Under the pieces are notes generated by a model. It was not told where the DNA came from and ran no database searches. It worked only from the letters and a program-made list of their open reading frames with translations. 37,930 bases of DNA from Patescibacteria group bacterium (GTDB lineage Bacteria; Patescibacteriota; Patescibacteriia; JAHIZJ01): assembly GCA_041661625.1 (NCBI GenBank), contig JBAZUB010000004.1, positions 1-37,930 on the forward strand. Reading direction: 5' to 3'. Below are positions 128 through 36,528 of the stretch, in pieces. The translations under genes were made by a program, and so were the position numbers. The first letter of the stretch is position 1, and each line of letters starts with the position of its first letter.

Positions 128-141
128 CGCAAATACGATGA
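1..141 (+). CDS. terL: Terminase large subunit, 3' end. This is the wrap-around continuation of 36529..37930, and 1..127 duplicates the window end
   Basis: Frame 1 reads ...EDWADAPENYKILIEQIRNYPQSKKDGPDALQGARKRLNKSGAQIR. The stop TGA at 139-141 overlaps the portal ATG at 138 (ATGA). Confidence 0.85.
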   Translation, partial: EDWADAPENYKILIEQIRNYPQSKKDGPDALQGARKRLNKSGAQIR

Positions 142-2279
142 GACGCAAAACATCCCCCCTAACTAAGCAAGTGGCAGAACTGCGCCGGGAACTGCAGTCT
201 GTCTACAAGGCCAATGAGGCCCGCCACTTTGTAGGCAACCCGTTTAACTACAGCCGTGAAAGCCAGTTCGCGCCCACATCTAAGACTGAAGATTACTTAC
301 AGCTCTATGAGACTTACGCCCATGTCTTTGCTTGTGTTGACGCCATATCCCGCAACTGCGCCAAGCTGCCCCTGCGCCTGTATAAACTGACAACCAGGTC
401 AAGCACTAAGGACCGGCGCGGGGAAGAGATAACCATGGGTGATGTGTGGAACCTGTTCAATCAGCCTAACCCATATTGCAGCGGTTACGGGCTTATCTAT
501 TCGACCGTGGCCTATCTCAAGCTCACGGGAAACGCATATCTTGAGAAGGTGGGGGCTAAGACCATCCGCGAACTCTGGACCCTGCGCCCTGATTGGATGA
601 AGATACGGGCGGACGCTAAGAACCTAATAGCGGGTTATGAGTACACGGTTGACGGGTCAATGATTAAGTACGCGCCCGAGGAAGTCCTGCGCTTCAAGAC
701 CTTCCACCCCCGTTCCGAGATATACGGCATGGCGGTCATGTCTCCGGCACAGCAGAGCATCATTACGGACCTTTACGCGGCCAAGTATTCCAAGCTGTTC
801 TTTAAGCAGGGCGGACACCTTAACTGGTATGTCAGTGTCAAGGAAGAGATGGACAATGAGTCATACAAGCGCATGGAGCAGCAGGCGCGGACCAAGTGGG
901 GCGGCATAGAGAACGCCCATGTCCCGGCCATTCTTGACCAAGGCGCGGAGATTAAGGAACTGGGCGGTAACCCTGATAACAAGGTGCTGCTACCACAGAA
1001 GACCCTTAGCCGCGATGAAGTCTGTGAGGTCTTCGGGGTGCCTGCCCTTATGCTTGGCCTGCCCAATGAGACGCACTACAATAACGCCGAAGCTCAAAAG
1101 GTTTTCTTTTGGGAAGAGACCATTCAGCCATTCATGGGCGAGTTGGTTGCTACCATTAACCGTGACCTGTTATGGCCTATCGGTATTGAGATGGAGGCGG
1201 ATTACTCTAAGGTGAGCGTCCTGCAGCCGGATTATAATACCAAGGCGATGACGGCTAAGACGCTTGTTGATGGCCGCATTATGACGCCCAATGAAGTGCG
1301 GGAAAAGTTTCTTGAGATGGACCCGCTGCCCGGTGGTGATGAGTTCTATGTCCCGCCCACGCCCGCACCTTTCGGCGGCCTTGGTCTTGATGATGAGGAG
1401 ACAGCACAGGACAAGGATGATAAAACAACCGTACCCGCTGCCGTGCCTACAGAGAAGCCCGTTGAAAAGGCCAAGCGCAAGCCCCGCAAGCCACGCGAGG
1501 AAATGGCTAAGGCCATCGTTAATCACCGGGCCACTGTTGCCGCCTATGCCTATGACGCTATCTATCAGGTTATTGATAAGGCTTATGTGGCCTATGCGGA
1601 CGCGGTTCACGGCGTGATTGGAACCAATGTTAAGAAGGTTGCCTTTATCAAGTTAGACCTTGTAACAGAGGCCATCGCATCCCTTGACCCCGTTACCATG
1701 AAGCTGGCCGAAGACCTGCTAAAGGTTGAAAATGGCTTGCTTGATAAGATTATCAGGGCCGAATACCAACGAGTCAAAGACTTCGCACCTGAAAAGGCTA
1801 TTGCCGCTGATATTGAAAGCCAGGTATCCAAGCACCTAGACCGCATCGTTAAGGCCAGCGTTAAGGCCGTGAGCGAGACGGTTATCGACCGGGTTACAAA
1901 GCACCTTGAGGATGGCATAGCATCCGGTCAGACCGCCGCTGAACTAGGCCGGGATATTCAGGACTTGCTTGGCAAGGACACGGCGCAGGCGCAGACCATA
2001 GCGCGGACTGAGACCCTGAAGTATACAGAGACTAGCCGGTATGAAACCCTTACCGCGATGGGGTTTGAGGAGAAGGAATGGATACATTCAGAGCATAGCA
2101 ACGCCCGCCCCGGTCATGAAGCCCTTAACGGAACGGTGGTTAAGCTAGGCGAATACTTTGTAGACCCCGTGACCGGTGATAAGCTCATGTTCCCCGGTGA
2201 CCCTAACGCGCCCGTAGGGGCCGTTGCAAATTGTGGGTGCACCTTCGTTGAATACGTCAAGGAAGCGGTGGAGGAATAA
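138..2279 (+). CDS. Portal protein fused to a C-terminal Mu F / SPP1 gp7-type head-morphogenesis domain
   Basis: A 713-aa ORF lies directly after terL. Its N-terminal part is portal-like (LYAAKYSKLFFKQGGHLNWYVSV...). The last ~120 aa carry the MuF-type pattern ARTETLKYTE..WIHSEHSNARPGHEALNG..FPGDPNAP..NCGCTF. Both families were recalled, not searched. Confidence 0.85.
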   Translation: MRRKTSPLTKQVAELRRELQSVYKANEARHFVGNPFNYSRESQFAPTSKTEDYLQLYETYAHVFACVDAISRNCAKLPLRLYKLTTRSSTKDRRGEEITMGDVWNLFNQPNPYCSGYGLIYSTVAYLKLTGNAYLEKVGAKTIRELWTLRPDWMKIRADAKNLIAGYEYTVDGSMIKYAPEEVLRFKTFHPRSEIYGMAVMSPAQQSIITDLYAAKYSKLFFKQGGHLNWYVSVKEEMDNESYKRMEQQARTKWGGIENAHVPAILDQGAEIKELGGNPDNKVLLPQKTLSRDEVCEVFGVPALMLGLPNETHYNNAEAQKVFFWEETIQPFMGELVATINRDLLWPIGIEMEADYSKVSVLQPDYNTKAMTAKTLVDGRIMTPNEVREKFLEMDPLPGGDEFYVPPTPAPFGGLGLDDEETAQDKDDKTTVPAAVPTEKPVEKAKRKPRKPREEMAKAIVNHRATVAAYAYDAIYQVIDKAYVAYADAVHGVIGTNVKKVAFIKLDLVTEAIASLDPVTMKLAEDLLKVENGLLDKIIRAEYQRVKDFAPEKAIAADIESQVSKHLDRIVKASVKAVSETVIDRVTKHLEDGIASGQTAAELGRDIQDLLGKDTAQAQTIARTETLKYTETSRYETLTAMGFEEKEWIHSEHSNARPGHEALNGTVVKLGEYFVDPVTGDKLMFPGDPNAPVGAVANCGCTFVEYVKEAVEE

Positions 2280-3280
2280 TGAAAACCCTAATCGCCAAAT
2301 ATGCCGCGCTCCTTGACGCGCCTATCACGCCCGAGGCTATGCTTGAACTCAAGGCAACCCGTGACACCCTGGCTTCAGACAAGGGCGTGGTCCTGACCAA
2401 GTTTGAAAACCCCCGGCTCCATTTCCTTGATGGGCGTGTGTCATGGGCTGATATCGCGCCTGCCGTTGATAGCAAGGTTGAGGTCAATCTGGTTGTCATG
2501 GATAAGGAAACTATCCCGGCCATCAAGGGCTTCAAGAAGTATGTCCTTGGCTATGCCGTTGATAGCACTAAACCATTTGAAGGCGATAACATCGAGGCGC
2601 TTGTTACAACCATCATACCCGATACGGACTACAAGGTCGGTTCTATACTGGCCGTAAAGACAGGGGGCGTTAGACCTATAAGGGCTGACGGCCACTTTAA
2701 GGTTGAGATTGACCCGCCCCTAACCTTCACGGCCAAGAAAGATAAACTCAACTGCGCTAAGGAAATCATCCGCAAGGCGTTCAAGGCCGAGGCGCTTGAG
2801 ATGGATAAGGCGATGGCCGTTGACTTGTGCGTGTCCAAGGTGCTTAAGTTCGACCTCGATGCGTATTATGGGGTAGGCGTGGACAAGGCCGTGAAGTTCT
2901 GCAAGGCTATGGACTTCATGAAAGAGGGGATTGTTTACGGCATAGTCTACCCTGTGAATGAAGTTGATACGGACGGTGACTATGCTACACCCGAAGAGGT
3001 ACAAAAGGCTGCATGGCGTTTCATGGAGGATTTCCAAGCCTTCAACTTCATGCACTCTGAACCTCTCACAGCCCAGGATGTCACACTAGTTGAAAGCGCC
3101 ACGGCGATGGCTGATATCAAAGACCTTGGCATTAAGAAGGGAGATTGGTATATCGCCGTCCGCGTGCGTAATGATGAACTCAAGGACAAGATTTTAAAGG
3201 GTGAGATTACCGGCTTCAGCATGGAGGGCAGCGCGCAGCCCGGTAAACCAATCCCTGAACTTGAAAGGATGAAACAATGA
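2279..3280 (+). CDS. Prohead protease candidate with an XkdF-like serine protease domain in the C-terminal half
   Basis: 333 aa. The motif GIVYPVNEVDTDGDYATPEEVQKAAWRFMEDF...ITGFSMEGSA resembles the XkdF family. The gene sits between the portal and scaffold/capsid genes, with a TAATG overlap with the portal stop. Confidence 0.6.
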   Translation: MKTLIAKYAALLDAPITPEAMLELKATRDTLASDKGVVLTKFENPRLHFLDGRVSWADIAPAVDSKVEVNLVVMDKETIPAIKGFKKYVLGYAVDSTKPFEGDNIEALVTTIIPDTDYKVGSILAVKTGGVRPIRADGHFKVEIDPPLTFTAKKDKLNCAKEIIRKAFKAEALEMDKAMAVDLCVSKVLKFDLDAYYGVGVDKAVKFCKAMDFMKEGIVYGIVYPVNEVDTDGDYATPEEVQKAAWRFMEDFQAFNFMHSEPLTAQDVTLVESATAMADIKDLGIKKGDWYIAVRVRNDELKDKILKGEITGFSMEGSAQPGKPIPELERMKQ

Positions 3281-3597
3281 AACCTTATCCCAATTATAAG
3301 GGCAATAACTTAACGGACATAGTGCCGCGAAAGATTGCGCTTGTGACAGAGGGAGCTAATAAAAAGAAGTTCTGTTTGTTTAAACTCAAAGAAAAAGGAA
3401 ATCCCACAATGGAAAAGACCGAACTGGATACCATCGTATCCGAAGTGGTCAAGGCCATTCAGCCCATGCTGACCGACCTTACCGCAAAGACCGACGCCAT
3501 CGCTAAGATGGTCAAACCCGAAGACAAAGACCCCGAACTCACCGATGAGCAGGTTAAGGCACAGGTTGCCGCCGCTCTTGCCAAGGAAGGAAACTAA
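3277..3597 (+). CDS. Scaffolding-like protein
   Basis: 106 aa, charged and helical (..ELDTIVSEVVKAIQPMLTDLTAKTDAIAKMVKPEDKDPELTDEQVKAQVAAALAKEGN). It lies immediately upstream of the capsid gene and has an ATGA overlap with the protease gene. Confidence 0.5.
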   Translation: MKPYPNYKGNNLTDIVPRKIALVTEGANKKKFCLFKLKEKGNPTMEKTELDTIVSEVVKAIQPMLTDLTAKTDAIAKMVKPEDKDPELTDEQVKAQVAAALAKEGN

Positions 3598-3598
3598 C

Positions 3599-4822
3599 AT
3601 GAAACAGTCCGAACTCAACAAAATGCTTGAGGGTATCTCTACCCGTAAGGCTCGCTTTTCAGTGGGCGAAAATCGCGGTCCTGAGACCATGACCGAACTG
3701 CATAAGGGCAGCGTCACGGGTGAAGACCGCTATGCTCGCGCCATCAAAAAAATTCAGGTTGACAGCGATAAGCTGCTCCTGACTTCCAAGTCTACCGGCA
3801 TCCCGGTTGAGAAGCTGAACGCGTATGCAGGTTTCAAGCGCTTCATCGAGGATGATAGTGAACTTAAGAAGGTCATGACTGACACCACCCAGTCCAACTG
3901 GATTCCCTCCAATTTCAGCGCGGATTTCGTTGATGCTGTCGGCCTTGAACTCAAGGTAGCGGCCCTGTTCCCTGAGGTTCAAATGACCTCTCCGACTCAG
4001 TACTTCAGCATCAAGACTGATTTCAGCACGGCCTATACCAAGACTGAAGGTTCTGACGCGACTGCTTCACCGAACATTACGGACCAGAAAGGCACCCTCA
4101 CGGCTAAGGTTATCGCGGTCTATCAGACCATCAGCGATGAGCTTGACCAGGACGCGGCCTTTGCTCAGGCTCCCATGCTGCGCAATGACTGCATCACGGC
4201 CATCGGGCGCGGTATCGAGAACGCCATTATCAACGGTGACTCTTCGACTACCCACCTTGACACGGATGTTACGCTGGCCTACGATGTGCGCCATGCCTGG
4301 CAGGGCTTGCGGCGTTATGCTTACGCTAACTCCCTGACCACCGACCTGTCCACCTTCAACGCTGACACCGTGACAGCCCTCCTGGGCAGCATGGGCGTTT
4401 ATGGCGCGGACCCTTCACAGATTGCCGTTATCGTTGGTACGGGTGGCCGTATCAAGCTGCTGAACCTCAAGGACAACCAGAATAACCGCGTTTACCTTGA
4501 GTACGGTACGCCCGGCGCTATGAATGTGGCAATGGTTCCCGGTGGTGTCGGCAAACTGGCCGGTTGCGATGTGTTGGTTTCCGAGTTCTGCCGCGAGAAC
4601 CTGAACGCGTCAGGCTTCTATGACAGCACCGTGGCTACCAAGAAGTCGCTCCTGTTCGTTCGTAAGGATGGATGGGTTCGTGGCATGAGCCGGAACATGA
4701 CGGTTGAAACCGACCGTGATATCGTTGCGCAGTATACCAAGCTGGTGGTTTCCACCCGCATGGCTTTCGCGCCCCGTTATTACACCGGCGAAACCACCAC
4801 TTGGCTCGGATACAACATCTAA
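3599..4822 (+). CDS. Major capsid protein (HK97-fold type)
   Basis: 407 aa from ATG 3599, which follows AAGGAAGG one nucleotide after the scaffold stop. The track start at 3545 overlaps the scaffold gene. The call rests on capsid-like length, position and the C-terminal pattern GGVGKLAGCDVLVSEF. Confidence 0.8.
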   Translation: MKQSELNKMLEGISTRKARFSVGENRGPETMTELHKGSVTGEDRYARAIKKIQVDSDKLLLTSKSTGIPVEKLNAYAGFKRFIEDDSELKKVMTDTTQSNWIPSNFSADFVDAVGLELKVAALFPEVQMTSPTQYFSIKTDFSTAYTKTEGSDATASPNITDQKGTLTAKVIAVYQTISDELDQDAAFAQAPMLRNDCITAIGRGIENAIINGDSSTTHLDTDVTLAYDVRHAWQGLRRYAYANSLTTDLSTFNADTVTALLGSMGVYGADPSQIAVIVGTGGRIKLLNLKDNQNNRVYLEYGTPGAMNVAMVPGGVGKLAGCDVLVSEFCRENLNASGFYDSTVATKKSLLFVRKDGWVRGMSRNMTVETDRDIVAQYTKLVVSTRMAFAPRYYTGETTTWLGYNI

Positions 4823-4842
4823 GGAGACATCCCTAACCTCGG

Positions 4843-4869
4843 ATAGGGGGGAAGTAACTAACCCCCTAT
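4843..4869 (+). terminator. Stem-loop downstream of the capsid gene, a possible partial terminator
   Basis: ATAGGGGG (4843-4850) pairs with CCCCCTAT (4862-4869) around an 11-nt loop. The following tract TACTTTACC is only weakly T-rich. Confidence 0.3.
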
Positions 4870-4878
4870 TACTTTACC

Positions 4879-5700
4879 ATGATACAAGGCGTGATGATAT
4901 TCTACGATGACGGCCCGGAACTCTTAGAGAGGGCGCTTACCTCTTTAAAGAAGGTGACTGACCGGGTGTTAGCCGTGGACGGGGCATATAGGGAATTTCC
5001 GCATAAGGATTTTCTTAGCAAGAAAGAGAACCGCAAGATAGCCAAGGCGCTTGCCGATGAAGTTATCACACCTGATAAGGAGTGGTATGATGAGCCGACA
5101 AAAAGAAACGCATACCTCACGCTCAAAAGCGAAAAAGACTACTACCTCATGCTCGACGCGGATGAAGAAATTATTGGGCGAAAGCCTGAACGATGCGTGC
5201 ATCCGTGCTACAGGGTTTCGCTATCTACATTCCGTAGCGAACAATGGCTACCCGCTTACTACAACCGGCTCTTCAGGCATCACGAAGGGATGCGTTACCA
5301 CCTCACCCATAACAACCTCGTCACGCCCGCAGGCATAGCGCTTGCCCTGCCGGATAGCCATATCCCTATCTGTGAGGATGTGACTATTAAGCATTACCCC
5401 GGCGAAAGGTCAAATGAGCGGCAGGCGGAAGACGCGGTATTTGAGGGGCGCAAAGAAGAGCGCCTGATAGTCCTGCCGGTCATGCAGGCAACGCCTGACA
5501 GCACAGTCAAGGGTACGCCCATGCAGGTTAGATACATAGCCGCTGCGCCCTATCGCGGATTTGATGACGTTAACGGGCAGTCGGTTAACCTGAACTGCCG
5601 ACAGGGTGACTTAGTTTATATCAGCCGCGAGAAGTGGGCGCAATTACAGGCAGATTTCAAGGGGTCATGGGTGCTTATCAAGGAGATAGACAATGGCTGA
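4879..5700 (+). CDS. GT-A/GT2-like glycosyltransferase with a ~55-aa C-terminal domain shared with the 18090..19670 protein
   Basis: The N-terminus VMIFYDDGPELLERALTSLKKVTDRVLAVDG and the DxD-type motif YYLMLDADEEIIG support the GT call. The C-terminal VRYIAAAPYRGFDDVNG..ISREKWAQLQAD aligns with LRYIGEKVYRGFDDNG..VTREKARQLLQD. An alternative start is ATG 4894. Confidence 0.65.
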   Translation: MIQGVMIFYDDGPELLERALTSLKKVTDRVLAVDGAYREFPHKDFLSKKENRKIAKALADEVITPDKEWYDEPTKRNAYLTLKSEKDYYLMLDADEEIIGRKPERCVHPCYRVSLSTFRSEQWLPAYYNRLFRHHEGMRYHLTHNNLVTPAGIALALPDSHIPICEDVTIKHYPGERSNERQAEDAVFEGRKEERLIVLPVMQATPDSTVKGTPMQVRYIAAAPYRGFDDVNGQSVNLNCRQGDLVYISREKWAQLQADFKGSWVLIKEIDNG

Positions 5701-6274
5701 ATTTGTTAGCCTGGCCTCAATCAATGCAACCAGTATTCAGACCTATCTGAATGATACCACTATCAGCGCAGACCTGATTAATGCTCACCTGTTAGGGGCG
5801 CGGTCATTTGTTGAGGAATATTGCAGGCATGATTTTCTGTCCACCACACGGACGGCAGAGAAGCCCCTGATTGATAAGAATACATCGGTATTCTACCTTA
5901 AGAACTGGCCGGTTGCAAGCATTACCTCGCTTGTTGAAAACGGCAATACCCTTGTGGAGGATACGGACTTTTACATTGACAAAGACACTGGCAGGGTTGA
6001 GAAGATAGCGTCTACCGATATCCTTAACCCTGACCGTGATGTCTCCTATTGGTCCACGGAGCGGGCGGCGGTGGTGGTTACCTATGTAGGCGGGGAAGCC
6101 ATTACCGATGACGTTATCATGGCCGTTAAAGAGATAGCGGCTATCAGGGCAGGCGTCAAGCGGCGGACCTATACGGACGGCGAAGGCGTTGAGCGGGCCA
6201 CCACCATGAACAGCATCCCGAAGGACATCATGGATGTGCTTAACCGGCACAGGCACAGGCAGTATATTTTATGA
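5693..6274 (+). CDS. Head-tail connector (gp6-like adaptor)
   Basis: 193 aa. The N-terminal pattern ..TYLNDTTISADLINAHLLGARSFVEEYCRHDF is typical of gp6-type connectors, and the gene is in the expected synteny after the capsid. Confidence 0.55.
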   Translation: MAEFVSLASINATSIQTYLNDTTISADLINAHLLGARSFVEEYCRHDFLSTTRTAEKPLIDKNTSVFYLKNWPVASITSLVENGNTLVEDTDFYIDKDTGRVEKIASTDILNPDRDVSYWSTERAAVVVTYVGGEAITDDVIMAVKEIAAIRAGVKRRTYTDGEGVERATTMNSIPKDIMDVLNRHRHRQYIL

Positions 6275-6750
6275 TTGAAGTAAAAGTCATTCCTGACCCT
6301 GCCTTTCTTGACCTTGCCGAAAGGCTTAAGGTGGGCTTACTGCCCGTTATCGACAAGGAGACGCGCCTTACTACTGGCTATGCCAAGCGATTGATAATCA
6401 GGTCAACGGCTAGAGGCAGGACCGGACTAACGCAGGGCATGTGGAAAACAGAGAAGATAACCGAAGGCGTTTACAGGATATACAACCTGTTCAAGCACGT
6501 TGCTTTCCTTGAATACGGAACCGGCATCTATGGCCCCTTCAAGCGGTGGATTAGACCTAAGACGGCCATGTTCTTGCACTTCCCGATATGGTCGGCTAAT
6601 ACAATCACCGGATGGGTGCGGACGCTCAAGGTTGCCGGTATGCCTAAGCAACCCATGATTGCACCTAATAAGGATAAGATTATCAATGACCTTCGCATCC
6701 GCATATCCAACGCCATCAAGCGGCTGACCGCTGCGACAGGTGGTAAATAA
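6271..6750 (+). CDS. HK97 gp10-like head-tail joining / tail component
   Basis: 159 aa with the ..HVAFLEYGTGIYGP.. pattern recalled from the gp10 family. It has an ATGA-type overlap with the upstream gene. Confidence 0.5.
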   Translation: MIEVKVIPDPAFLDLAERLKVGLLPVIDKETRLTTGYAKRLIIRSTARGRTGLTQGMWKTEKITEGVYRIYNLFKHVAFLEYGTGIYGPFKRWIRPKTAMFLHFPIWSANTITGWVRTLKVAGMPKQPMIAPNKDKIINDLRIRISNAIKRLTAATGGK

Positions 6751-6786
6751 TGGCCCTTGACCGCGTTGCAGCAATAAGGAGGTTTC

Positions 6787-7116
6787 ATGGCTGATTTCGA
6801 TTATACCGGCGCTCGCAAACAGGCCGCATATCTGACCGCCCTTTGTGACGCTCACGATGCCGTTGTCGCCGGAAAAGCCTTGAAAGAGGACGAACCGAAG
6901 GAAACGCTTGAGGCGCAGAAAATCTCCGCTTCAAATATCGCCCTTGCCGGTTCATCCGCAAAGGCTGAAATCCTCGGCACACTGTCCGCCGCCCCCTCAA
7001 TGAAAACAGATGACCTCGTGAAAATCGGCATGGAGACGAAATACGCGGAGGCCGTCATGATTGAGGCCGCAACAATTCGCGCCGATGCTCTCGCACTACG
7101 GGAGGTTAAACCGTAA
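6787..7116 (+). CDS. Hypothetical neck/structural protein
   Basis: 109-aa ORF with a strong RBS (AAGGAGG at 6776-6782) and a position inside the structural block. Confidence 0.5.
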   Translation: MADFDYTGARKQAAYLTALCDAHDAVVAGKALKEDEPKETLEAQKISASNIALAGSSAKAEILGTLSAAPSMKTDDLVKIGMETKYAEAVMIEAATIRADALALREVKP

Positions 7117-9038
7117 TGCAACTGCCCTTTGTCGCCGGGACGCTCTCGGACGCGAGCAAGCTTAAATGGTCAAATGTTGACCAAGCTCTCGCGGAACTGG
7201 CGTATCAATTAATTCTGTCAGATGATTTCCCTAATCTCAATAACTGGACAGAGGTTGATGCCGGAACAAATGTGAACCTGTCCGGTGGTGTCGTTACCAT
7301 GAACGGGTCGAACTCATATAACACAAACGGCATTTCGCTGACAACTGGGCTTGCAATGACTCGTGGATATATCGAATGCAAGATGGCGATTGCTGGCTCC
7401 GTAGCAATCGGAAGCATCTTCCAATTGAACGGCAACAGCGGACTCGCGGCTGCATCGGGCTACGGTGCGAGGCTTGCAACCACCCTTGTAAATGGCTTGT
7501 CCGGGACATCTGCGGTTGGCGCAAGGTCAACGGCCTATGCAACATTTTACACGGTTCGCGTCTATATAGAACCGGACGAAAACGGAACTGCTCGATCAAA
7601 AATAACTACTACAATTCAAGGTGGTGACTTCACAGCAGAAACAGAACTTGCCTGTTTTTCCCTTTCTTCCCCCGGTTCGGCAACACCTTATGCCTCAATG
7701 CAGAGATACTCAACGGATGCCGACCTTTCATCGTTTAAGGAATTTCGCGCTTACGCTGGCTATGCCACGGACGGGCCGACAGTCGAATATGTCCACGATG
7801 CGGGGGCCGGAAAGACTTATGACAATCTCGACTTCACAGATTTCGCCATGCCGGGAAGCGTCACCTCAACCAATCTGAAATTCGCTTATTCGTTCGACGC
7901 CGGAACCGCGTCATATTCGGCATACTACGGGATAGATCAGCTCAAAGCGCTCGGAAAAATCACGGGCCGTTATCGGTATATTCGCATCAAGGTACAGGTC
8001 AACTCAGACGGCGCAACGCAGCAATACGCAGCGGAACCAAACGCGGCAACGGCTACGGACGGCATTGGAGATTTCCCGGCGCTTGATAGTGTTTGGAGTG
8101 GTGACACGGTTCAAGGGGCGACAGGGACAGAAGACCAGCCCGCTTTATCAAATGTCCTGCCCGTGGATACCTTGCGCGGGGCGGCGGGTACATCCGACAA
8201 GCTCTATAGCGCGGCGGAAGAGGCAGCGAGGAATACCGGCGCGGCGGTCGGTATCATCAAGGCCGGTGAGACTATCAAGCAAATTAACATTGATTACCTT
8301 GGTACATACGCGGGCGGGGGCGCAGTCCTTCCCGGTGTCCCGGCCCTTGGTACTCCCACGGCTTTATCTTCAACGTCCCTGCGCGTTTACTTTACGTGGT
8401 CATCGGATGCACAGAAGATATACCTTGAGCGCTCAACGGATGGCGTGACCTACGGCTCGGCAGTAGAGATGGCGGCGGGCGCGTATTACTACGATGATAC
8501 CGGCCTGACAGCCGGAACCGCTTACACCTACCGGGCGCGGGCGTGGAATACTACCGGATACTCGGCCTATTCTACCACGGTTCAGGGTACAACCAGGGCA
8601 ACCAACGGCACAGAGCAGGCCCTATGGTCCACCTTCAAGACCAAGATGCAGGCCGACAGTTACCTTGCGGCTTACATCGGCGCGTGGAAGTTTGACCGCG
8701 AAGAGAAGCAGCTAACCGGCCTGACATACCCAATCTTCAAGGCTTGGATTGCAAGCACCCGCGAGGAATGGATAGCCGTACCGAAGCGCAAGTCAGTGGT
8801 GGTCCGAATTGTAGTTCATGGCCTAGTTAGGGCCGCAACCCAGGCGCTTCTTGAGGCTGAGAAGCTCAAGATGGATGAGTATATCAAGAACGCGGTAGAG
8901 GCCGACATGACCTTTAATGACGGAACTACTATGAACATTGTAGGCGATACCATGTTCAGCAACCTGTCTGATAACGAAGCGGAGATTTTCGTTGAGGTCG
9001 ATTTAATGTCCCTGATATTCACAGCAGGCGCTAGATAA
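7116..9038 (+). CDS. Multidomain structural protein: ConA/LamG-like N-terminal region, FN3 domain, and a C-terminal ~130 aa resembling a tail-terminator/neck module
   Basis: 640 aa. The FN3-like stretch LSSTSLRVYFTWSSDAQKIYLERSTDGVTYG..TAYTYRARAWNTTGYSAYS lies at ~8330-8600. The N-terminal part is jelly-roll-like (NLNNWTEVDAGTNVNLSGGVVTMNG..GYIECKM). The gene occupies the slot immediately upstream of the major tail gene. Confidence 0.5.
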   Translation: MQLPFVAGTLSDASKLKWSNVDQALAELAYQLILSDDFPNLNNWTEVDAGTNVNLSGGVVTMNGSNSYNTNGISLTTGLAMTRGYIECKMAIAGSVAIGSIFQLNGNSGLAAASGYGARLATTLVNGLSGTSAVGARSTAYATFYTVRVYIEPDENGTARSKITTTIQGGDFTAETELACFSLSSPGSATPYASMQRYSTDADLSSFKEFRAYAGYATDGPTVEYVHDAGAGKTYDNLDFTDFAMPGSVTSTNLKFAYSFDAGTASYSAYYGIDQLKALGKITGRYRYIRIKVQVNSDGATQQYAAEPNAATATDGIGDFPALDSVWSGDTVQGATGTEDQPALSNVLPVDTLRGAAGTSDKLYSAAEEAARNTGAAVGIIKAGETIKQINIDYLGTYAGGGAVLPGVPALGTPTALSSTSLRVYFTWSSDAQKIYLERSTDGVTYGSAVEMAAGAYYYDDTGLTAGTAYTYRARAWNTTGYSAYSTTVQGTTRATNGTEQALWSTFKTKMQADSYLAAYIGAWKFDREEKQLTGLTYPIFKAWIASTREEWIAVPKRKSVVVRIVVHGLVRAATQALLEAEKLKMDEYIKNAVEADMTFNDGTTMNIVGDTMFSNLSDNEAEIFVEVDLMSLIFTAGAR

Positions 9039-9061
9039 TAACCTATTAAAAGGAGTTTCAG

Positions 9062-10018
9062 ATGAGCGTTTCAAAACTTCAGCAGGTCGGTTTGAAAGTA
9101 GGCGGGACTACCGCCTATGCCACGGCATCCACCACATTCACACGCGGGCTTCTTGTCCGCACCTTTGACGTCAACCCCACTGACGGCGCGGCCCCGGTTT
9201 CCGAGGTCCGGTCTAAGTTTGGCCCCAACCGCGTGGGCCTGCCGATGATTGACTTTGACGCTGCCATCACCTTCCCGTTGGATGTGGGCGATAATGCCAG
9301 CGGAAACATCGGTGATTTCCTTAACGGCGTATTCGGAACGGACGCTGTTAGCGGGACCGGCCCGTATCTTCACACCTTCAGTCGCAACGATACCGCCCTA
9401 CCTAAATACCTGAACCTGTATTCAGACAAGGATATTGATAACAAGCAGTATACCGGCTTCCGCACGGAACAGGTCAAGTTCACGATTGACGCCGGCTCTC
9501 CCGAAATCGGCGTGGAAATCAGCGGCGTATTCAAGGATGAAAGCGAGTATGCCGGGGCGCAAACACTGACCTATTCCGGCTCTCCGCTTCTCCTGCCGTC
9601 ACAGGCTACCACTCTCACCCTTGCCGGAAACGCCGTTACAACCTTCAGCAAGATTGAAATCACGGTCAAGCGTACCCTTGAGCGCTTTCACGCTGTCGGC
9701 AGCAGCAGGCGTATTAGCAACGCATACAGCAAGGATTTCAGCATTGACATCGCCTGTGAAGGTCTGGACTTTACGGCGGAGACAGAGCGCGATAAGTTTA
9801 TCGCCGGGACTAGCACGGCCTTCAACCTTATCCTGACCGACTCCAATGCGAACTATCTCCGGTTCAACCTGCCGACCGTGTACTATCAGTCATGGAAGGG
9901 ACCGGACATCAACGATAGCGAACTCCTGAAAGTGAACCTTGTAGGCTTCGCAACGGGTGACTCCTACAACGCCTATCTTCAGAACATGCGGGCGACCGGC
10001 TACGATGCGGAGGTCTAA
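9062..10018 (+). CDS. Major tail (tube) protein, siphovirus-type
   Basis: 318-aa ORF with RBS AAAGGAG. It lies directly upstream of the frameshifting chaperone pair and the tape measure gene. The call is by position. Confidence 0.55.
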   Translation: MSVSKLQQVGLKVGGTTAYATASTTFTRGLLVRTFDVNPTDGAAPVSEVRSKFGPNRVGLPMIDFDAAITFPLDVGDNASGNIGDFLNGVFGTDAVSGTGPYLHTFSRNDTALPKYLNLYSDKDIDNKQYTGFRTEQVKFTIDAGSPEIGVEISGVFKDESEYAGAQTLTYSGSPLLLPSQATTLTLAGNAVTTFSKIEITVKRTLERFHAVGSSRRISNAYSKDFSIDIACEGLDFTAETERDKFIAGTSTAFNLILTDSNANYLRFNLPTVYYQSWKGPDINDSELLKVNLVGFATGDSYNAYLQNMRATGYDAEV

Positions 10019-10021
10019 ACG

Positions 10022-10450
10022 ATGGACGCAACCGAAAAAGCCGCACAGATTGAGGCGCAGGCAGAGGTCGAAACCAGGACGGACGGGGTTAATGACCTTG
10101 CTGTCCTAGCGCCTGAGCCTGAGTTGTTTGTCCTTGAGCGCTGGACCCCTGCCGGGGAAGACCGCCGGGAATATCAGGTTTACCCTATCCCGATGAAGAA
10201 GATGGCTATCCTTGCAGGGTTGCAGAAGATAGACCCCGGCAGCTTCAAGCCCGAAGACCTCAATGTTATCTACCCGGTTATCGGGCAGGCCATCCGCGAG
10301 CCTGACATTGCCTTCATTGAGGATGCCTTGACCGTCCCGGCCCTCTATGAACTGTTCCGCATCATGGCCAAACTGAACTATGAGGGCATCCCATCAGGCA
10401 AGGGCGAAAAAAAAAATCATCCGGCGTTAAAAGGTGGGGGCAGGGCTTAA
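10022..10450 (+). CDS. Tail assembly chaperone (gpG-like, zero-frame product)
   Basis: 142-aa acidic ORF between the major tail gene and the tape measure gene. It contains an A10 slippery run near its 3' end. Confidence 0.7.
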   Translation: MDATEKAAQIEAQAEVETRTDGVNDLAVLAPEPELFVLERWTPAGEDRREYQVYPIPMKKMAILAGLQKIDPGSFKPEDLNVIYPVIGQAIREPDIAFIEDALTVPALYELFRIMAKLNYEGIPSGKGEKKNHPALKGGGRA

Positions 10451-10635
10451 GGTGGACTTACTTCATACTCATGCGGGACTTGCACCTGTCCCACGCGGAC
10501 ATTGGGGATTTAACTATCCCGCAGGTTTACCTGTATATGCAATGTCTGCGCGAGGTCAATCAGGCCAAGAAGCAGGAGTATGAAATGGAGAAGCGGAAGA
10601 TGGAATTTGCGGCCTTTAGGATGAGGGGGCGCTAA
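10022..10635 (+). CDS. Tail assembly chaperone, -1 frameshift fusion product (gpGT-like)
   Basis: The -1 frame is open from the slippery run (re-pairing at 10414) to TAA 10633-10635, which overlaps the tape measure ATG. The extension reads KSSGVKRWGQGLRWTYFILMRDLHLSHADIGDLTIPQVYLYMQCLREVNQAKKQEYEMEKRKMEFAAFRMRGR. Confidence 0.6.
10407..10416 (+). promoter_or_regulatory. Programmed -1 ribosomal frameshift slippery site (A10; zero-frame GAA AAA AAA AAT)
   Basis: Ten consecutive A residues include an A AAA AAA heptamer in the zero frame of the chaperone ORF, with an open -1 frame downstream. Confidence 0.65.
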
Positions 10636-12020
10636 TGGCAATGAGCAACCAGGAAAAACTTGAACTTGTCATAACCGCCCGCAACCTCACGCAGGCGGAA
10701 TTTGATAAGCTGGCTAATAGCCTGAAGGCTACCACCACGCAGGCTAACGCGGCACAGGCCAGTATGGGTAAGTTTGCCAAGGTGCGAGAGCCTTTGATGC
10801 GACTTGCCTCTGGCCCGTTGCAGCAGTTAATGGGTAGTTTCGGCGCTTTTATCAGGCTTGCGGCCACCCTGCCAAAGGCTGTGTTGGGTCCGATAGGCTT
10901 ACTCATAGGTCTGATCATGGCCCTTGAGAGCAAGTTTAATATCATAGCTAAAACGATTGCGACAGTTAAGGTCGCATTTGAGGCATTGGCGTCATTCAAT
11001 TTCAGCGGGTTAGGTAAAAGCATATCAGACATATGGACGGGCGCAAAGGAAAAAGCGGAGGCGGCTAAAGAGGCTGCCAAGGGCTATAACGATGCATTGG
11101 TTGATTTGCTTGAGGCACAGGGCCATATATACGAAGCGGCCTATGAGAAAGAAAAGGCCCGCCATCAAAAGAAACTTGACGAGATTGCGGCTAATGAGAA
11201 AATAGGATTGCGCGGGCGCTCTGAATTGCTTGAGCTTGAGCGACAATTGCACAATCAAAATAATGCCAATATAACAGCCGAATTAAACAAAGCCCTTACT
11301 GATAGGCAAAACATTAGAAGGCAGGCACTAGCCAAGCAGATAAGAGAAGAAAATGAAATGCTTGTATCGGCTGCAAACGATGTGGATAAGTTTGTGGCCG
11401 ACAGGGATGAAAAAGATAGACAGCGGAATGTAGCCAAACTAGACGAACTATCAAAGATACTTACAGAGTCAGAGGCAATAAGCCAGCGCTTCTGGGATGG
11501 AATTGATAACCAAATAGGCGGAGTGGTTGATAGCGTTTCTTCCACTTTCGGCGCGGCTTTCGAGCAAATGGTCAACACCTCAAAGACTGCCGGTGAAGCC
11601 ATGATTGAAGCCTTCAACCAATTCGGGCGGCAGGTGCTATTTATGATAGGTAAGATGATAGCCAAGTTCCTATTCTTGAACCTGCTCAAAGCCATATTCT
11701 CGGGGGCAACGGGCGGATTAGGCGGGGCTATTGCGGGCTTTGCAGAGAAAAGCCTTGGTAATATGTCGGCTAGTATGGATAATTTGTTCCCTTCCAAGCA
11801 GGCCGACACGGGTGCTACTAGCCGTGTTCCCGGTGCCTTTGGTATGCCCGTTCCCATTATCGCCCACGGCGGCGAAATCATAGGCCGTCCCGAAGGCGGC
11901 GGAGGTCCTAGCATAGTTATTCAGGGCGATGTCTACGGGTGGGATGAGACTATCGAGCGTATCAGGTCCGGCCTCTACACACATTCGAGAAGGACCGGGA
12001 TGTCAGCGGTCCCGGCGTGA
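10635..12020 (+). CDS. Tape measure protein
   Basis: 461 aa. It has coiled-coil-rich and hydrophobic stretches (LGPIGLLIGLIMAL, FLFLNLLKAIFSGATGGLGGAIAGF) and a position right after the chaperone pair. Confidence 0.7.
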   Translation: MAMSNQEKLELVITARNLTQAEFDKLANSLKATTTQANAAQASMGKFAKVREPLMRLASGPLQQLMGSFGAFIRLAATLPKAVLGPIGLLIGLIMALESKFNIIAKTIATVKVAFEALASFNFSGLGKSISDIWTGAKEKAEAAKEAAKGYNDALVDLLEAQGHIYEAAYEKEKARHQKKLDEIAANEKIGLRGRSELLELERQLHNQNNANITAELNKALTDRQNIRRQALAKQIREENEMLVSAANDVDKFVADRDEKDRQRNVAKLDELSKILTESEAISQRFWDGIDNQIGGVVDSVSSTFGAAFEQMVNTSKTAGEAMIEAFNQFGRQVLFMIGKMIAKFLFLNLLKAIFSGATGGLGGAIAGFAEKSLGNMSASMDNLFPSKQADTGATSRVPGAFGMPVPIIAHGGEIIGRPEGGGGPSIVIQGDVYGWDETIERIRSGLYTHSRRTGMSAVPA

Positions 12021-17681: not shown

Positions 17682-18093
17682 TGAAAGGTGACCATATCGC
17701 GTATAAGTCGGGCTATAAGTATCAATTGGTAGAGGATTACACCCTTAAGACTAGCATTATTGGGCTTGCCGTTGTTACCCAATTCATAAACCTGACCACG
17801 GACGGGCTGTTGACTATCTTTAAGGGCTACTGTTATGATGGCGCGTCTGGACCCACTGTCGATACAAAGACCTCTATGCGCGGGCATTGGTCCACGATTG
17901 CCTATACCAATTGATGCGGATAGGGTTACTGCCAAGACTTCACAGGGAATACTCCGACAAGCTATTCCGAGAAATCTGTATAGAAGATGGCATGTGGCCT
18001 GCCAGGGCTATGATTTGGGAGCGGGCTGTCAGGTGGTTTGCCGCTGATGCTAGCAAGCCAAGCGGTGAGCCGAAGGTGCAAACGGCCCCTTAA
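17678..18093 (+). pseudogene. DUF1353-like gene interrupted by a 1-nt frame shift near 17882-17886
   Basis: ORF 17678..17914 ends ..GYCYDGASGPTVDTKTSMRG and ORF 17887..18093 begins (L)VHDCLYQLM... Together they reproduce the DGaSiP...HDxlY pattern of DUF1353. One extra G in the GGG run at 17882-84 would join them. Confidence 0.6.
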
Positions 18094-19670
18094 TAGAGGC
18101 TATCTTCGGTCAGGCATCCTAACAACATCCATCTAGCCGGGCCGTCCTGCAGGAGCTGCCTGGCCTTCTCGCGGGTAACCTGAACGGTATCCATGAAGTT
18201 TGCCTCGAACTCATAAGATCCGTTATCATCAAAGCCACGGTAAACCTTTTCCCCTATATACCGCAACTTGAACGGGTGCGATAGTTCAAAGGCTGTGAAG
18301 CTAACCTCACCCTGGAAGTCAGCGGCTACTATGGCCGGGTTAGGGTGTTCCCCTTCACATGCCCCGGTATGCTCAAGCATTGACGGGGAACAGGCGTAAA
18401 CCCTGCCGCCGTCCTTGCGTACTAAGGCACATAAAGCCCCGTCCCAATTTGTTCTTTCATCTTCGGCTATGGTCATTTCGGCTAGGTACTTCTCAAAGAT
18501 AGGCCGGGTAATGATTAGGCCAAGCCCGCCAATGTCAACCTTTTCAACTAGCCCGCCTTCTGATGCGGCTAATGGGGCGTGTATCTTGGCGTTGAACAGG
18601 CAATGAAGCGCACCCTCACGCGGGCGGGCGCGTATGATTTCAAGGGCCATCTTATACCAATCCATTGAGAATACACAATCGCTATCTAAAACAAGGAGGT
18701 TATCAGCCCCGGCCTCAAACATTGCCTTGATACTGGCAAGGTTCTTTCTAACGCATCCAAGGCGCGCCTCTGATTGAACCAGGACAACCTCGGGAATACG
18801 GAGGGTTAGCGCTTTAATCTTCGGCAAGTCATTGGAGCAATCATCGAATACATACAGCCTGCGCGGGCGCGGCTCTGTCTTTAGGTAGCTTCTTACTGTG
18901 CGCTCAAGCAAATCGTACCGGTTGTATGTGGTCATCATCACAGATAGTTCTTCATTATAGATATTCGGAACCTTCTTAGCGGCTACCACCCGCATCCGGT
19001 CTATCAGGTCACCTATCATTTTAACATCTGCAGCGCACTGGCTGTTATACCACTTTGTGAAAATAAGCTCACCCTTTTTGTAATCCTCTTCAACGGCGCG
19101 GTAGGTATCATCCTTGACCGCCTTACCGAAAGCCGGGTGCATATGTTCAATGTTTACCTCGGGCAGATGTGTCATTATGTTGGTCTTAAACCCGATTGAT
19201 GTCAGCCAGCAATCAACCCATGAGTGCTTATAATCTGGCGGGAAGAAATAGCCAAGGGCGTGGACAAGGATGGCCCCGTGCATGGTAGAGGTAGGCATGT
19301 TTTGAGTATTGCCATAACACACGGCAACGCCCATATTCTTGCGGTCTATCGCTTCCATCATCTTAATGTCCCATCCCTCGGTCCTGCAAACATGGTCATC
19401 GTTAATCTCATGGTAATATTCAAAGTCCCGGTACTTTTCGCAGGAGAAATAGTTGACCACCTGAACCATAGTTTTATATGGGCCGAACTCAATAGAGGCA
19501 CCCTTAGGTGGGATGATAGCCTTGTATTGTGCAATCATCGGGTTAGCTTCATCTACATAGGCCACTAGCCTGGAAGCCGGGCCGCGCTTGGTTTCACGCC
19601 ATGACTTCATCATACGCTCAAGCATATCGGGGCGGCGGTGCGAGGAACACATGGTAAGTAGTTTATACAT
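18090..19670 (-). CDS. Double glycosyltransferase (two GT-A-like modules) plus the shared C-terminal domain
   Basis: 526 aa from ATG 19670 (RBS AGAGG, 8-nt overlap with the upstream stop). Module 1 (LLTMCSSHRRPDMLERMM..EINDDHV) is a paralogue of the 25467..26216 protein. Module 2 is GT2-like (LSVMMTTYNRYDLLERTVRSYL..LYVFDDCSND..LVLDSDCVF). The C-terminus carries LRYIGEKVYRGFDDNG..TREKARQLLQD. Confidence 0.7.
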   Translation of the reverse strand: MYKLLTMCSSHRRPDMLERMMKSWRETKRGPASRLVAYVDEANPMIAQYKAIIPPKGASIEFGPYKTMVQVVNYFSCEKYRDFEYYHEINDDHVCRTEGWDIKMMEAIDRKNMGVAVCYGNTQNMPTSTMHGAILVHALGYFFPPDYKHSWVDCWLTSIGFKTNIMTHLPEVNIEHMHPAFGKAVKDDTYRAVEEDYKKGELIFTKWYNSQCAADVKMIGDLIDRMRVVAAKKVPNIYNEELSVMMTTYNRYDLLERTVRSYLKTEPRPRRLYVFDDCSNDLPKIKALTLRIPEVVLVQSEARLGCVRKNLASIKAMFEAGADNLLVLDSDCVFSMDWYKMALEIIRARPREGALHCLFNAKIHAPLAASEGGLVEKVDIGGLGLIITRPIFEKYLAEMTIAEDERTNWDGALCALVRKDGGRVYACSPSMLEHTGACEGEHPNPAIVAADFQGEVSFTAFELSHPFKLRYIGEKVYRGFDDNGSYEFEANFMDTVQVTREKARQLLQDGPARWMLLGCLTEDSLY

Positions 19671-20523
19671 TGGCAACCTCTTTAATTTCAACGGCGCACT
19701 TTGTTGTAACTAAGTCCGGCTTTGCCTTGCACTTGACATCGCAGGGATTACAAAGCCCGTAATTATCGCACTGGCTAAAATCATCCTTATGCTCATAGGC
19801 TATGTTGAGAATGTTACCAACCTCGCTTTCCGCCCCATACAAGTCACGGTGACAGCGGTATATGTTGCCCTCTGGCCCTATTAGGAAATCTTCGGGACGG
19901 CATAAACAGGACTTCCGGTTACCATTCAGGGCCGCATAATATTTGTAATGGCCGAACAGCCTATCGTCATGGAAGCCTAAGAAGTCCCTGATAAAGAAGT
20001 ATACCCCCGCATCGGCGCAGCGCTGTGTCATTTCCGTATTATGGAAAAGGTTATTCGGATGATTGATACCAAATATTCCAACATTATACCCTTCATCCTG
20101 AAGTGTCTTGGCGGTGTTGATTGTATCGTCTTTCTTCATTGAATGAACATGGTAGCTTATGCGGATGGCCTTGTAATAGAAAGCCTCTCTAGCCCCCCTA
20201 TAAAGCCTGTCCGGTGGTATGTTATCCATGAACTCGTCAATATCAAACTGACCATTGGTTAGCAGGTCAATCTTAATATCATCCCTTAGCTGGCTAACGA
20301 TATTATAAAAGCCCGAATGAATAGTAGGCTCACCGCCACCTAGCGTGATAGGCTTACCGCCCGTGTCTATATTGTTCAATCCTAATACCCATTCACGGTC
20401 GGTTAGTTCCTGTCGCTTGCGCTTGCACCCGGTGAATGAATTGATACAATAGGGACAGGCTAGATTACAGCGGAGGGTTAGATAAGCCTCAATGTAGGAA
20501 TAGCGGGCCGGTACTTGTATCAT
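19663..20523 (-). CDS. Radical SAM enzyme with a Cys-rich C-terminal (SPASM/twitch-like) region
   Basis: 286 aa. CNLACPYC matches CxxxCxxC, GGGEPTIH is present, and the C-terminal cysteines lie in CLCRP..RCHRD..CDNYGLCNPCDVKC. Confidence 0.8.
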   Translation of the reverse strand: MIQVPARYSYIEAYLTLRCNLACPYCINSFTGCKRKRQELTDREWVLGLNNIDTGGKPITLGGGEPTIHSGFYNIVSQLRDDIKIDLLTNGQFDIDEFMDNIPPDRLYRGAREAFYYKAIRISYHVHSMKKDDTINTAKTLQDEGYNVGIFGINHPNNLFHNTEMTQRCADAGVYFFIRDFLGFHDDRLFGHYKYYAALNGNRKSCLCRPEDFLIGPEGNIYRCHRDLYGAESEVGNILNIAYEHKDDFSQCDNYGLCNPCDVKCKAKPDLVTTKCAVEIKEVANV

Positions 20524-20747
20524 AATGCTAGCGGCTCCTTCTTTAAAAACTCTCCGGTTACAACGCTTCTAAGGCGCGGCCCGGTTGTAGCCTTACTAGT
20601 GCTAGACCAACACACCATTTCATATATAAAATACTTCCTATCAATGGCAGACCGCCTATGATATGGCTTACACTCTCCACACTTTCCAGCATGAAAACAG
20701 TTAGCCCTACAGGTTCTACAACATAGTTTAATATTACAACGACTCAC
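20520..20747 (-). CDS. Small Cys-rich protein or peptide (metal-binding partner or radical-SAM substrate candidate)
   Basis: 75 aa, MSRCNIKLCCRTCRANCFHAGKCGECKPY..., with 8 Cys in residues 4-25. The GTG start overlaps the upstream stop (GTGA) and its own stop overlaps the downstream ATG (ATGA). A GAAGGG RBS is present. Confidence 0.55.
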   Translation of the reverse strand: MSRCNIKLCCRTCRANCFHAGKCGECKPYHRRSAIDRKYFIYEMVCWSSTSKATTGPRLRSVVTGEFLKKEPLAL

Positions 20748-21979: not shown

Positions 21980-22449
21980 TTTGCTTTCTTCAACCCAATA
22001 AGCGCCGGGCCTTCCCTGTCATATTCCTTCAGGACCGCCGCCGTGGTTTCCTCTGCCGTCTTTGGGTAATAGATGGCCGCGTTTGTGAACGGGTTAAACT
22101 TATCAAAGCGCAAGATATCGGCATGACTGACACCCTGTCCTGGATAGTCAGCGTATCCCACAAGTTTAACATTGGCATTGTTAGCGTCAACATCAATCTT
22201 GATTTGCTCAAAGGCGCGTTCAAATAGGAATGGCGTAATGGTAAATACCCACGGCTTAAGCCCCTCAAGGGCCATGCCTGCCGCGATACCTACCATGCTT
22301 TGTTCAATCACGCCAATATTCAAGAACTGCTTTGGCCGTTCCTTGCGGAGGCGGTCGAAAATACCGAAGCCAATGTCCCCGACTAAGAGTATAACCTTAT
22401 CGTCTTTAATGGCAAGGTCGGCCAAGGCGTTTCCAAAGGCGGTTCTCAT
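21976..22449 (-). CDS. Transketolase-family ThDP enzyme, pyrimidine-binding (C-terminal-section) subunit, truncated
   Basis: 157 aa. MRTAFGNALADLAIKDDKVILLVGDIG..FLNIGVIEQSMVGIAAGMALEG matches the TK Pyr domain. There are ATGA overlaps on both sides. Confidence 0.75.
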   Translation of the reverse strand: MRTAFGNALADLAIKDDKVILLVGDIGFGIFDRLRKERPKQFLNIGVIEQSMVGIAAGMALEGLKPWVFTITPFLFERAFEQIKIDVDANNANVKLVGYADYPGQGVSHADILRFDKFNPFTNAAIYYPKTAEETTAAVLKEYDREGPALIGLKKAK

Positions 22450-23066: not shown

Positions 23067-23080
23067 GTCCTTGAGTGATT

Positions 23081-36506: not shown

Positions 36507-36528
36507 TAAGGTCAAGGTTGCGGACGCT

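Follow-up and report, generated by a model that had tools for sequence, protein, structure and literature searches.

The 37,930-base stretch of DNA analyzed here (contig JBAZUB010000004.1, from a Patescibacteria group bacterium; hereafter the window) is probably a nearly complete phage genome, and the gene under study, ORF273, lies in its head module. This open reading frame (ORF) of 273 codons runs from an ATG start at positions 4879-5700 (plus strand), begins 56 nt past the stop of the gene for the major capsid protein with the HK97 fold (3545-4822, plus strand; Pfam Phage_capsid, 1.3e-9), and overlaps with its own stop the start of the head-tail adaptor gene by 8 nt (5693-6274, plus strand; PHROG 442 at 6.4e-17, with homologues in the related loci L001 and L003 that match the HCP family of Pfam). 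An AlphaFold2 model and the family alignment divide the protein into a GT-A glycosyltransferase and a small C-terminal domain, the latter shared with a double glycosyltransferase (GT) of the same window (18090-19691, minus strand; a 533-residue ORF from a TTG, or 526 residues from the first ATG at 19670). The original prediction, made from the sequence alone, had considered that ORF273 might be a moron; the gene has no flanking pair of promoter-like and terminator-like signals, its GC content equals that of the neighboring genes and its stop overlaps the adaptor start, and by these features it reads as part of the late head operon, apparently coupled translationally to the adaptor gene. An inverted repeat, AUAGGGGGG…CCCCCUAU, lies at 4842-4870 (plus strand) within the 56-nt gap between the capsid gene and ORF273; as a hairpin it is probably not a meaningful element, since its stability is no better than that of shuffled sequences (z = -1.07).

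The catalytic domain of ORF273 spans residues 1-196 (4879-5466, plus strand). With a 75-sequence alignment as input, AlphaFold2 produced a model with a mean predicted local distance difference test (pLDDT) score of 94 and a predicted template modeling (pTM) score of 0.82, while the single-sequence model gave a pLDDT of only 31. Foldseek comparison to the PDB assigned residues 1 to ~200 to the GT-A fold, with a probability of 1.0 to SunS, ThuS, AvpGT, SpsA and glycogenin. The best match was SunS (PDB ID: 7msn; E = 2.8e-6), then ThuS, at a template modeling (TM) score of ~0.48 normalized to the query; AvpGT, heparosan synthase, KfiA, SpsA, glycogenin and N-acetylgalactosamine (GalNAc) transferases made up the further matches, and among viral structures the model matched phage and giant-virus GT2 proteins, down to 1.5e-9. 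Curated sequence families had little to say of the protein, with no match in Pfam or NCBIfam (E <= 1 or 0.01) and a single weak match to PHROG 7009 (glycosyltransferase; 8.6e-4). Within the ORF273 family the residues D34-G35, K75-R76-N77, D93xD95-E96 (the DxD motif), R130, H144, H172, R177 and E194 are invariant. The motif D93-x-D95-E96 ('DADEE', in YYLMLDADEE) is retained in all of 23 family members down to 30% identity, as are ~20 further residues, and this conservation argues for an active enzyme, an activity that we predict from the sequence. The presence of a GT-A-like enzyme with a DADEE motif directly after the capsid gene, as originally proposed, is thus confirmed by the modeled fold and the invariant DxD. 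A linker with lower model confidence (residues 197-214, 5467-5520, plus strand; pLDDT 77-84) joins the catalytic domain to the C-terminal one.

The first copy of the shared domain occupies residues 215-268 of ORF273 (5521-5682, plus strand), where BLASTP, a hidden Markov model (HMM) and the AlphaFold2 model agree on it; in the model it is compact, with four short beta-strands, a 10-residue helix and a final strand (residues 215-266). The second copy lies at residues 473-524 of the 533-residue ORF (18120-18275, minus strand) and was located by BLASTP and by an independent HMM. The positions conserved in the domain follow the pattern Y..Y.G.D ... K..QL..DFP..W. BLASTP of ORF273 against the 533-residue ORF gave a single significant segment, aligning residues 214-267 with 473-524 at 23 of 54 identical positions with 2 gaps (E = 5e-8), slightly above the roughly 20 identities counted by eye in the original prediction. 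The Smith-Waterman score of the two C-termini was 92, compared with 21.2 +/- 4.2 (maximum 51) in 5000 shuffles (z = 17). An HMM built from 14 ORF273-family C-termini from outside the window, with no double-GT sequence included, matched the double GT at E = 1.2e-14 among the 651 six-frame ORFs of the window, with E >= 0.5 for all others. From these three results we conclude that the likeness of the two C-termini, first noticed by eye and now significant in formal alignment, reflects homology, and from the lack of any other HMM match that the domain is present exactly twice in the window. Searching PDB sequences with a profile of the domain gave chance-level matches only (antibody 'VTVSS'; SH3, E = 0.65; GroES, E = 1), and a word-indexed protein search with the domain alignment found none, since the domain falls below the length that such an index needs.

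Among 1.84 billion representative proteins, 156 matched a domain profile at E <= 1e-3, and they show three architectures: ORF273-type proteins, large GTs of 500-575 residues with the domain at the very end, and ~130 small stand-alone proteins. The stand-alone proteins are 57-150 residues long (130 have 150 residues or fewer), and the domain begins within the first 25 residues in 116. A low-complexity linker rich in K, A, E and P comes next, and many of the proteins then end in a tail of basic or Rho_N type: 65 have a strongly basic stretch as their final 15 residues, and the tail of P0105 is a Rho_N domain (E = 1.3e-6), with several others alike by eye. Tandem copies of the domain occur in P0023, P0114, L021 and L028. 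Pfam holds only fragments of the domain, two domains of unknown function (DUF7210 and DUF7302) that cover its hairpin-helix part; among ten stand-alone members scanned only P0023 scored above the DUF7210 cut-off (29.8 against 27 bits) and P0040 fell just below that of DUF7302, and ORF273 and the double GT matched neither family, even at E <= 1. A literature search found no paper that mentions DUF7210 or DUF7302. Whichever reading of the domain holds, this stand-alone family of ~130 clusters, encoded downstream of capsid genes, is new, as we found neither functional annotation nor published description for it.

Probing viral contigs with only the domain as query brought up 26 loci, and in all 26 a homologue of the window capsid is encoded upstream, on the same strand (phmmer E from 1e-17 to 1e-64; from 1e-17 to 1e-161 across all loci L001-L030). 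In about half of the 26 the domain begins 14-110 nt past the capsid stop. With a fused GT-A domain this distance becomes 706-780 nt, which is the length of the GT-A domain. Where checked, the gene that follows encodes a gp6-like connector, an HCP or a Phage_tail_S-like protein; with capsid upstream and connector downstream, the capsid-connector slot is the home of the shared domain. These observations change one point of the original prediction, in which a GT had been inserted between the capsid and connector genes: in this lineage the slot is already home to a small domain protein, to whose N-terminus a GT-A domain was added, and ORF273 is best described as a slot protein that has gained a GT-A domain in front and lost its tail. 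The window has no separate stand-alone copy. The earlier suggestion of a targeting module is strengthened independently by the free-standing family downstream of the capsid gene; binding of the domain to the capsid would be a further step.

The ORF273 family was found in metagenomes only, with 16 close members, ~24 when distant ones are counted, identities of 30-62% and lengths of ~260-290 residues, and all have the identical two-part layout. As the original prediction had proposed to check, related phages do keep a GT in this slot: an ORF273-type gene retains the position in L001/L031 and L003 (56-58% identity), L033 (33%), L043 (36%) and the P0133 contig, and in L031 a large GT ends in the domain as well. 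A search of 50,697 GenBank phages gave no match to the head region (megablast) or to ORF273 (tblastn), and none to the stand-alone domain and consensus queries by tblastn even at E <= 1; E. coli genomes likewise gave no match, a metagenome scan returned a single short locus, and a word-indexed protein search with the full-length ORF273 alignment added only one further protein. The capsids of isolated phages nearest to the capsid of the window are T5-like, at 26% identity; in one such phage, Salmonella phage vB_STy-RN29, the adaptor gene comes next after the capsid gene, with no slot gene between them.

Fusion of the domain to GTs has occurred repeatedly. The domain proteins longer than 150 residues number 34; of these, 29 are of GT type, with four or more catalytic types represented, and enzymes of other classes were not recognized. 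The fused types are the ORF273 type, the double GT, a GT7C-GT2 enzyme (P0025) and P0114, which bears two domain copies. In L013 (2569-5581) three genes follow the capsid gene: a 202-residue GT-A of the ORF273 type without the domain (E = 7e-23), a gene that overlaps its stop, is coupled to it translationally and encodes a 364-residue protein with two N-terminal domain copies and a weakly GT-like remainder, and a fusion of GT2 with a methyltransferase that is homologous to a 257-residue GT of the window (E = 1e-50). L030 (4100-5484) pairs a GT-B gene with a stand-alone domain gene, and the two overlap at the start of the latter.

The second domain-bearing enzyme of the window closes a sugar-tailoring cluster. 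The double GT consists of a half that matches PHROG 14945 over residues 16-199 (9.9e-27) and a half that matches Pfam Glycos_transf_2 over residues 250-362 (1.2e-11), followed by the shared domain. P0021 and P0022 are homologues of identical architecture, and a scan of viral contigs with the double GT returned no locus. The cluster lies upstream of it on the minus strand (19663-26216) and forms with it an operon-like block (18090-26216) convergent on the tail genes. In transcribed order it encodes a 249-residue GT-like protein, which is a paralogue of the N-terminal half of the double GT (E = 1.6e-15), the 257-residue GT2, a radical S-adenosylmethionine (SAM)/SPASM enzyme, a hexapeptide acyltransferase, a split transketolase-like thiamine diphosphate (ThDP) enzyme, a B12-radical SAM enzyme, a 74-residue Cys-rich ORF, a further radical SAM enzyme and last the double GT; the window thus has four GT-like genes. 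No sugar nucleotidyltransferase was detectable by Pfam in the window, so the pathway presumably begins from a nucleoside diphosphate (NDP) sugar of the host. The 74-residue ORF (…CNIKLCCRTCRANCFHAGKCGECKPYH…; 20520-20747, minus strand), between the two radical SAM genes, has no family match; a helper of Fe-S or ferredoxin-like type is one possibility and a peptide substrate another. L041 has a 57-residue ORF at the equivalent position.

Comparison with relatives shows that the sugar genes are exchanged as cassettes. L031 has an ORF273 homologue in the slot (58% identity) and a 575-residue GT7C-GT2 enzyme ending in the shared domain, and its cassette (2599-8679) comprises an NTP_transferase, an epimerase/dehydratase, a HAD phosphatase and a methyltransferase, without radical SAM genes. 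L031 has kept the slot GT and the domain on its large GT, but its sugar pathway is a different one. The L041 cluster (1601-11626) contains a radical SAM/SPASM enzyme, two B12-radical SAM enzymes, E1_dh/Transket_pyr, a methyltransferase and a further radical SAM enzyme, and ends in a domain-bearing double GT convergent on tail genes; its head region was not recovered, and the constant part seen is the domain-bearing double GT at the end of the cluster type found in the window. Constant domain-bearing GTs with swapped cassettes are expected for a fixed acceptor with a diversifying glycan. L031 also encodes a C5 cytosine DNA methylase (9567-10508), two genes downstream of its domain-bearing large GT.

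In short, the two domain copies are homologous, ORF273 has the GT-A fold with its motifs, the domain is linked to the capsid slot and has been fused to GTs more than once, and sugar cassettes are swapped. Taken together, these observations suggest that the shared domain is a docking module associated with the phage head, tethering GTs for glycosylation of the virion, a reading to which we give a probability of roughly 45%; head binding by the domain, a virion protein as acceptor and the order of the enzymes are what we infer beyond these observations. In the proposed mechanism, ORF273 would be an active GT-A enzyme joined to a beta-rich domain of ~55 residues, and the domain would, in the simplest form, attach to the lattice of the capsid or to an intermediate of assembly. 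What it would present there is, in most relatives, a flexible linker and, in about half, a tail of basic or Rho_N type; here and in several relatives it would present GTs. Expression of the late head operon would supply ORF273, and that of the minus-strand sugar cluster the double GT; since both enzymes end in the domain, both would be held at the assembling head. The tethered GTs would then transfer a phage-made sugar, tailored by radical SAM, ThDP and acyl chemistry, to a virion protein. The solved structures nearest to ORF273, SunS and ThuS, act on polypeptides, and glycogenin and the GalNAc-transferases act on proteins. The roles of ORF273 and the double GT as first and last enzymes of one pathway, assumed in the original prediction, are not established by these data. 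More tentatively, the domain may serve an uncultured phage lineage as a general adaptor for docking at the head, with interchangeable payloads: a basic or HeH-type tail in most phages and, in several lineages, GTs of at least four types, so that the head would be the site at which a glycan coat is assembled from sugars swapped as cassettes.

A number of observations weigh against this reading. Adjacency to the capsid gene within one capsid lineage could be inherited synteny, and the double GT gene is distant from the head genes. The tails of the stand-alone forms, basic or of Rho_N type, resemble nucleic-acid binders, and a packaging or DNA-associated role would fit them at least as well as decoration. 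The SH3-like and GroES-like hints for the fold of the domain are not significant, no Shine-Dalgarno sequence is visible upstream of ORF273, and at 16% identity between SunS and ORF273 the acceptor is not defined by such fold similarity. In mycobacteriophages a Ser/Thr-rich extension of the structural protein is reported to be the part that is glycosylated; an alignment of capsids from GT-type and stand-alone-type phages revealed no such conserved extension, and a 'TGETTT' stretch near the C-terminus of the window capsid is not retained in L001. In this comparison, made to look for a glycan-acceptor extension on the capsid proteins, the differences between capsids track phylogeny and GT-type phages share no Ser/Thr-rich tail.

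The domain might instead be a general GT accessory, serving oligomerization or the binding of glycan or donor, with the GTs modifying a host envelope polymer or building a soluble glycoconjugate and the adjacency to the capsid gene accidental. GT-A enzymes of the ORF273 fold often build polysaccharides, with heparosan synthase, KfiA and SpsA among the structural matches, the double GT has weak NCBIfam matches to exopolysaccharide and colanic-acid GTs, and cassettes that vary among relatives resemble O-antigen loci. We nevertheless hold this to be unlikely, as most members of the domain family lack a GT yet still lie downstream of a capsid gene, and ORF273 sits within the late head operon, coupled to the adaptor and without moron-like signals; no flippase, polymerase or acyltransferase of the serotype-conversion type turned up among the scanned ORFs, in which membrane topology was not predicted. 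A distinctly unlikely explanation is that the domain is a packaging accessory like gpFI of phage lambda, bridging prohead and terminase-DNA, and that the fused GTs glycosylate DNA at the packaging vertex against restriction. In lambda, FI takes up this very slot, with the capsid gene E before it and the connector gene FII after it, and gpFI bridges the capsid and terminase-DNA (PMC13595911). Stand-alone family members consist of a folded domain and a flexible linker that leads to a basic tail or a Rho_N domain, and in this they resemble the arrangement of gpFI (Packaging_FI; PDB ID: 2LSM), in which a weak SAP-like N-terminus is joined by a linker to a C-terminal domain; the order of the parts is reversed between them, and ORF273 has no SAP/HeH-like part at all. 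The C5 methylase of L031 also speaks for this reading, and variable sugar cassettes would suit evasion of restriction as well. The alignment of the domain by hhalign to gpFI residues 104-123 is not significant (E = 0.13, probability 0.5%) and picks out a similar-looking 'PGxxxxVS..A' stretch, while Pfam (with ORF273 and ten stand-alone proteins) and PDB sequence searches gave no link to FI; we therefore rejected homology and keep gpFI as a positional and architectural analogy only. The basic or Rho_N tail is wholly missing from ORF273 and the large GTs, and among the scanned ORFs of this near-complete genome no thymidylate-synthase homologue, TET/JBP dioxygenase or C5 methylase that could generate a hydroxylated base for glycosylation was detectable by Pfam, the only DNA-modifying enzyme being an N6/N4 methylase (32228-32986, minus strand).

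Closer to the docking proposal, and in fact a variant of it, is the idea that ORF273 is itself a glycoprotein: a decoration-like component of the virion, anchored by its domain on the mature capsid, that glycosylates itself or its neighbors as glycogenin does. The structural matches include glycogenin, a self-glucosylating GT-A enzyme; tight coupling to the capsid gene makes a structural role of the slot protein probable in the relatives, and the tandem domain copies of P0023, P0114, L021 and L028 suggest multivalent binding to a lattice. Decoration proteins such as T5 pb10 and T4 Hoc combine a small capsid-binding module with a variable payload, a layout analogous to that of the domain and its payloads, with no sequence relation found; we know of no decoration protein that carries an enzyme. 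This variant seems to us very unlikely: the missing Shine-Dalgarno sequence implies low expression of ORF273, the double GT would have to be a virion protein too, and nothing here sets this reading apart from transient docking. Highly improbable is a fourth possibility, in which the cluster makes a glycocin-like glycosylated ribosomal peptide and the shared domain recognizes the peptide substrate. The glycocin S-glycosyltransferases SunS and ThuS (7msn and 7msk) are the best PDB matches of ORF273 and, like it, join a GT-A domain acting on a polypeptide, in their case, to an extra C-terminal domain, and the window encodes a radical SAM/SPASM enzyme and the Cys-rich ORF between two radical SAM genes. 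The appended domain of SunS and ThuS is helical, whereas that of ORF273 is the ~55-residue beta-rich one, and no precursor-peptide gene adjoins ORF273. The domain family is moreover tied to capsid genes and not to peptide-maturation clusters, and in L031 the two domain-bearing GTs are both retained alongside a cassette of ordinary NDP-sugar type that lacks radical SAM genes.

ORF273 does not belong by sequence to a curated GT family, to Packaging_FI or to any decoration family described so far. By analogy its way of working appears closest to that of GTs directed at proteins through an added recognition domain, following the logic of SunS, in a setting of virion glycosylation with an outcome like that in mycobacteriophages. 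In the cluster F1 mycobacteriophages Che8 and Rita, according to one report, phage-encoded GTs glycosylate the phages' own capsid proteins (PMC11256854, citing Freeman 2023). A glycan coat on the virion is thus known there and is proposed here; the GT genes of these phages lie near the 3' end of the genome, while ORF273 lies in the head operon, and the radical SAM and ThDP sugar tailoring of the window has no counterpart in them. To our knowledge, no shared docking domain has been described on mycobacteriophage GTs, phage virion glycosylation is documented mainly in mycobacteriophages, and there is no account of how the enzymes find the particle. What is new here is a portable, capsid-linked domain that couples several GT types to the head module together with cassette-swappable and partly exotic sugar chemistry, by a mechanism that would be the docking set out above.

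If the broader adaptor reading is correct, the domain would be, as far as we know, without precedent as a module dedicated to bringing an enzyme to the capsid so that a phage particle is modified post-translationally. Being small, portable, linked to the capsid gene and repeatedly fused to GTs, it offers a testable targeting mechanism, its HMM is a handle for finding similar systems in metagenomes, and it could serve as an engineering tag that brings enzymes or cargo to phage heads. The exchange of cassettes around constant domain-bearing enzymes suggests selection for glycan diversity on one fixed acceptor, and such diversification bears on the evasion of immune recognition and defense and on phage therapy.

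Further genes of the window make up the rest of the head and tail module. The large-terminase ORF (36457-37930, plus strand), preceded by the small terminase gene (36087-36506), continues past the last base of the window, and positions 1-137, just before the portal gene, encode a typical terminase C-terminus ('...DGPDALQGA...'); since the large terminase is split across the two ends, the contig is probably a circularly permuted, near-complete genome of ~38 kb. The portal protein (138-2279, plus strand) is fused to a MuF-like domain (Phage_portal, 4e-69; Phage_Mu_F, 5e-13), a fusion also present in the relatives L001/L031, and an XkdF-type protease (2279-3280, plus strand) follows. Downstream of the adaptor lie a Neck1/tail-completion-like protein (6271-6750, plus strand), a 640-residue protein, a Phage_tube_2 tail tube protein (9062-10018, plus strand) and, after it on the same strand, a tape-measure-like protein and distal tail genes. 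In four of the domain loci a conserved gene of ~350 codons is found between the capsid gene and the domain gene or genes (L014, 4819-5859; L021, 4768-5838; L022, 2612-3676; L028, 4632-5678); it had no PHROG match in any of the four and no Pfam match in L014, L021 and L028, the three that were scanned. Two members of this sub-lineage, L021 and L028, have two consecutive domain genes. Neither Pfam nor PHROG gave a match for the 640-residue protein of the window (7116-9038, plus strand), whose gene separates the neck genes from that of the tail tube; the protein is a candidate for a surface-exposed acceptor or a tube-associated decoration protein; its length differs in relatives, with 629 residues in L001 and 365 in L003.

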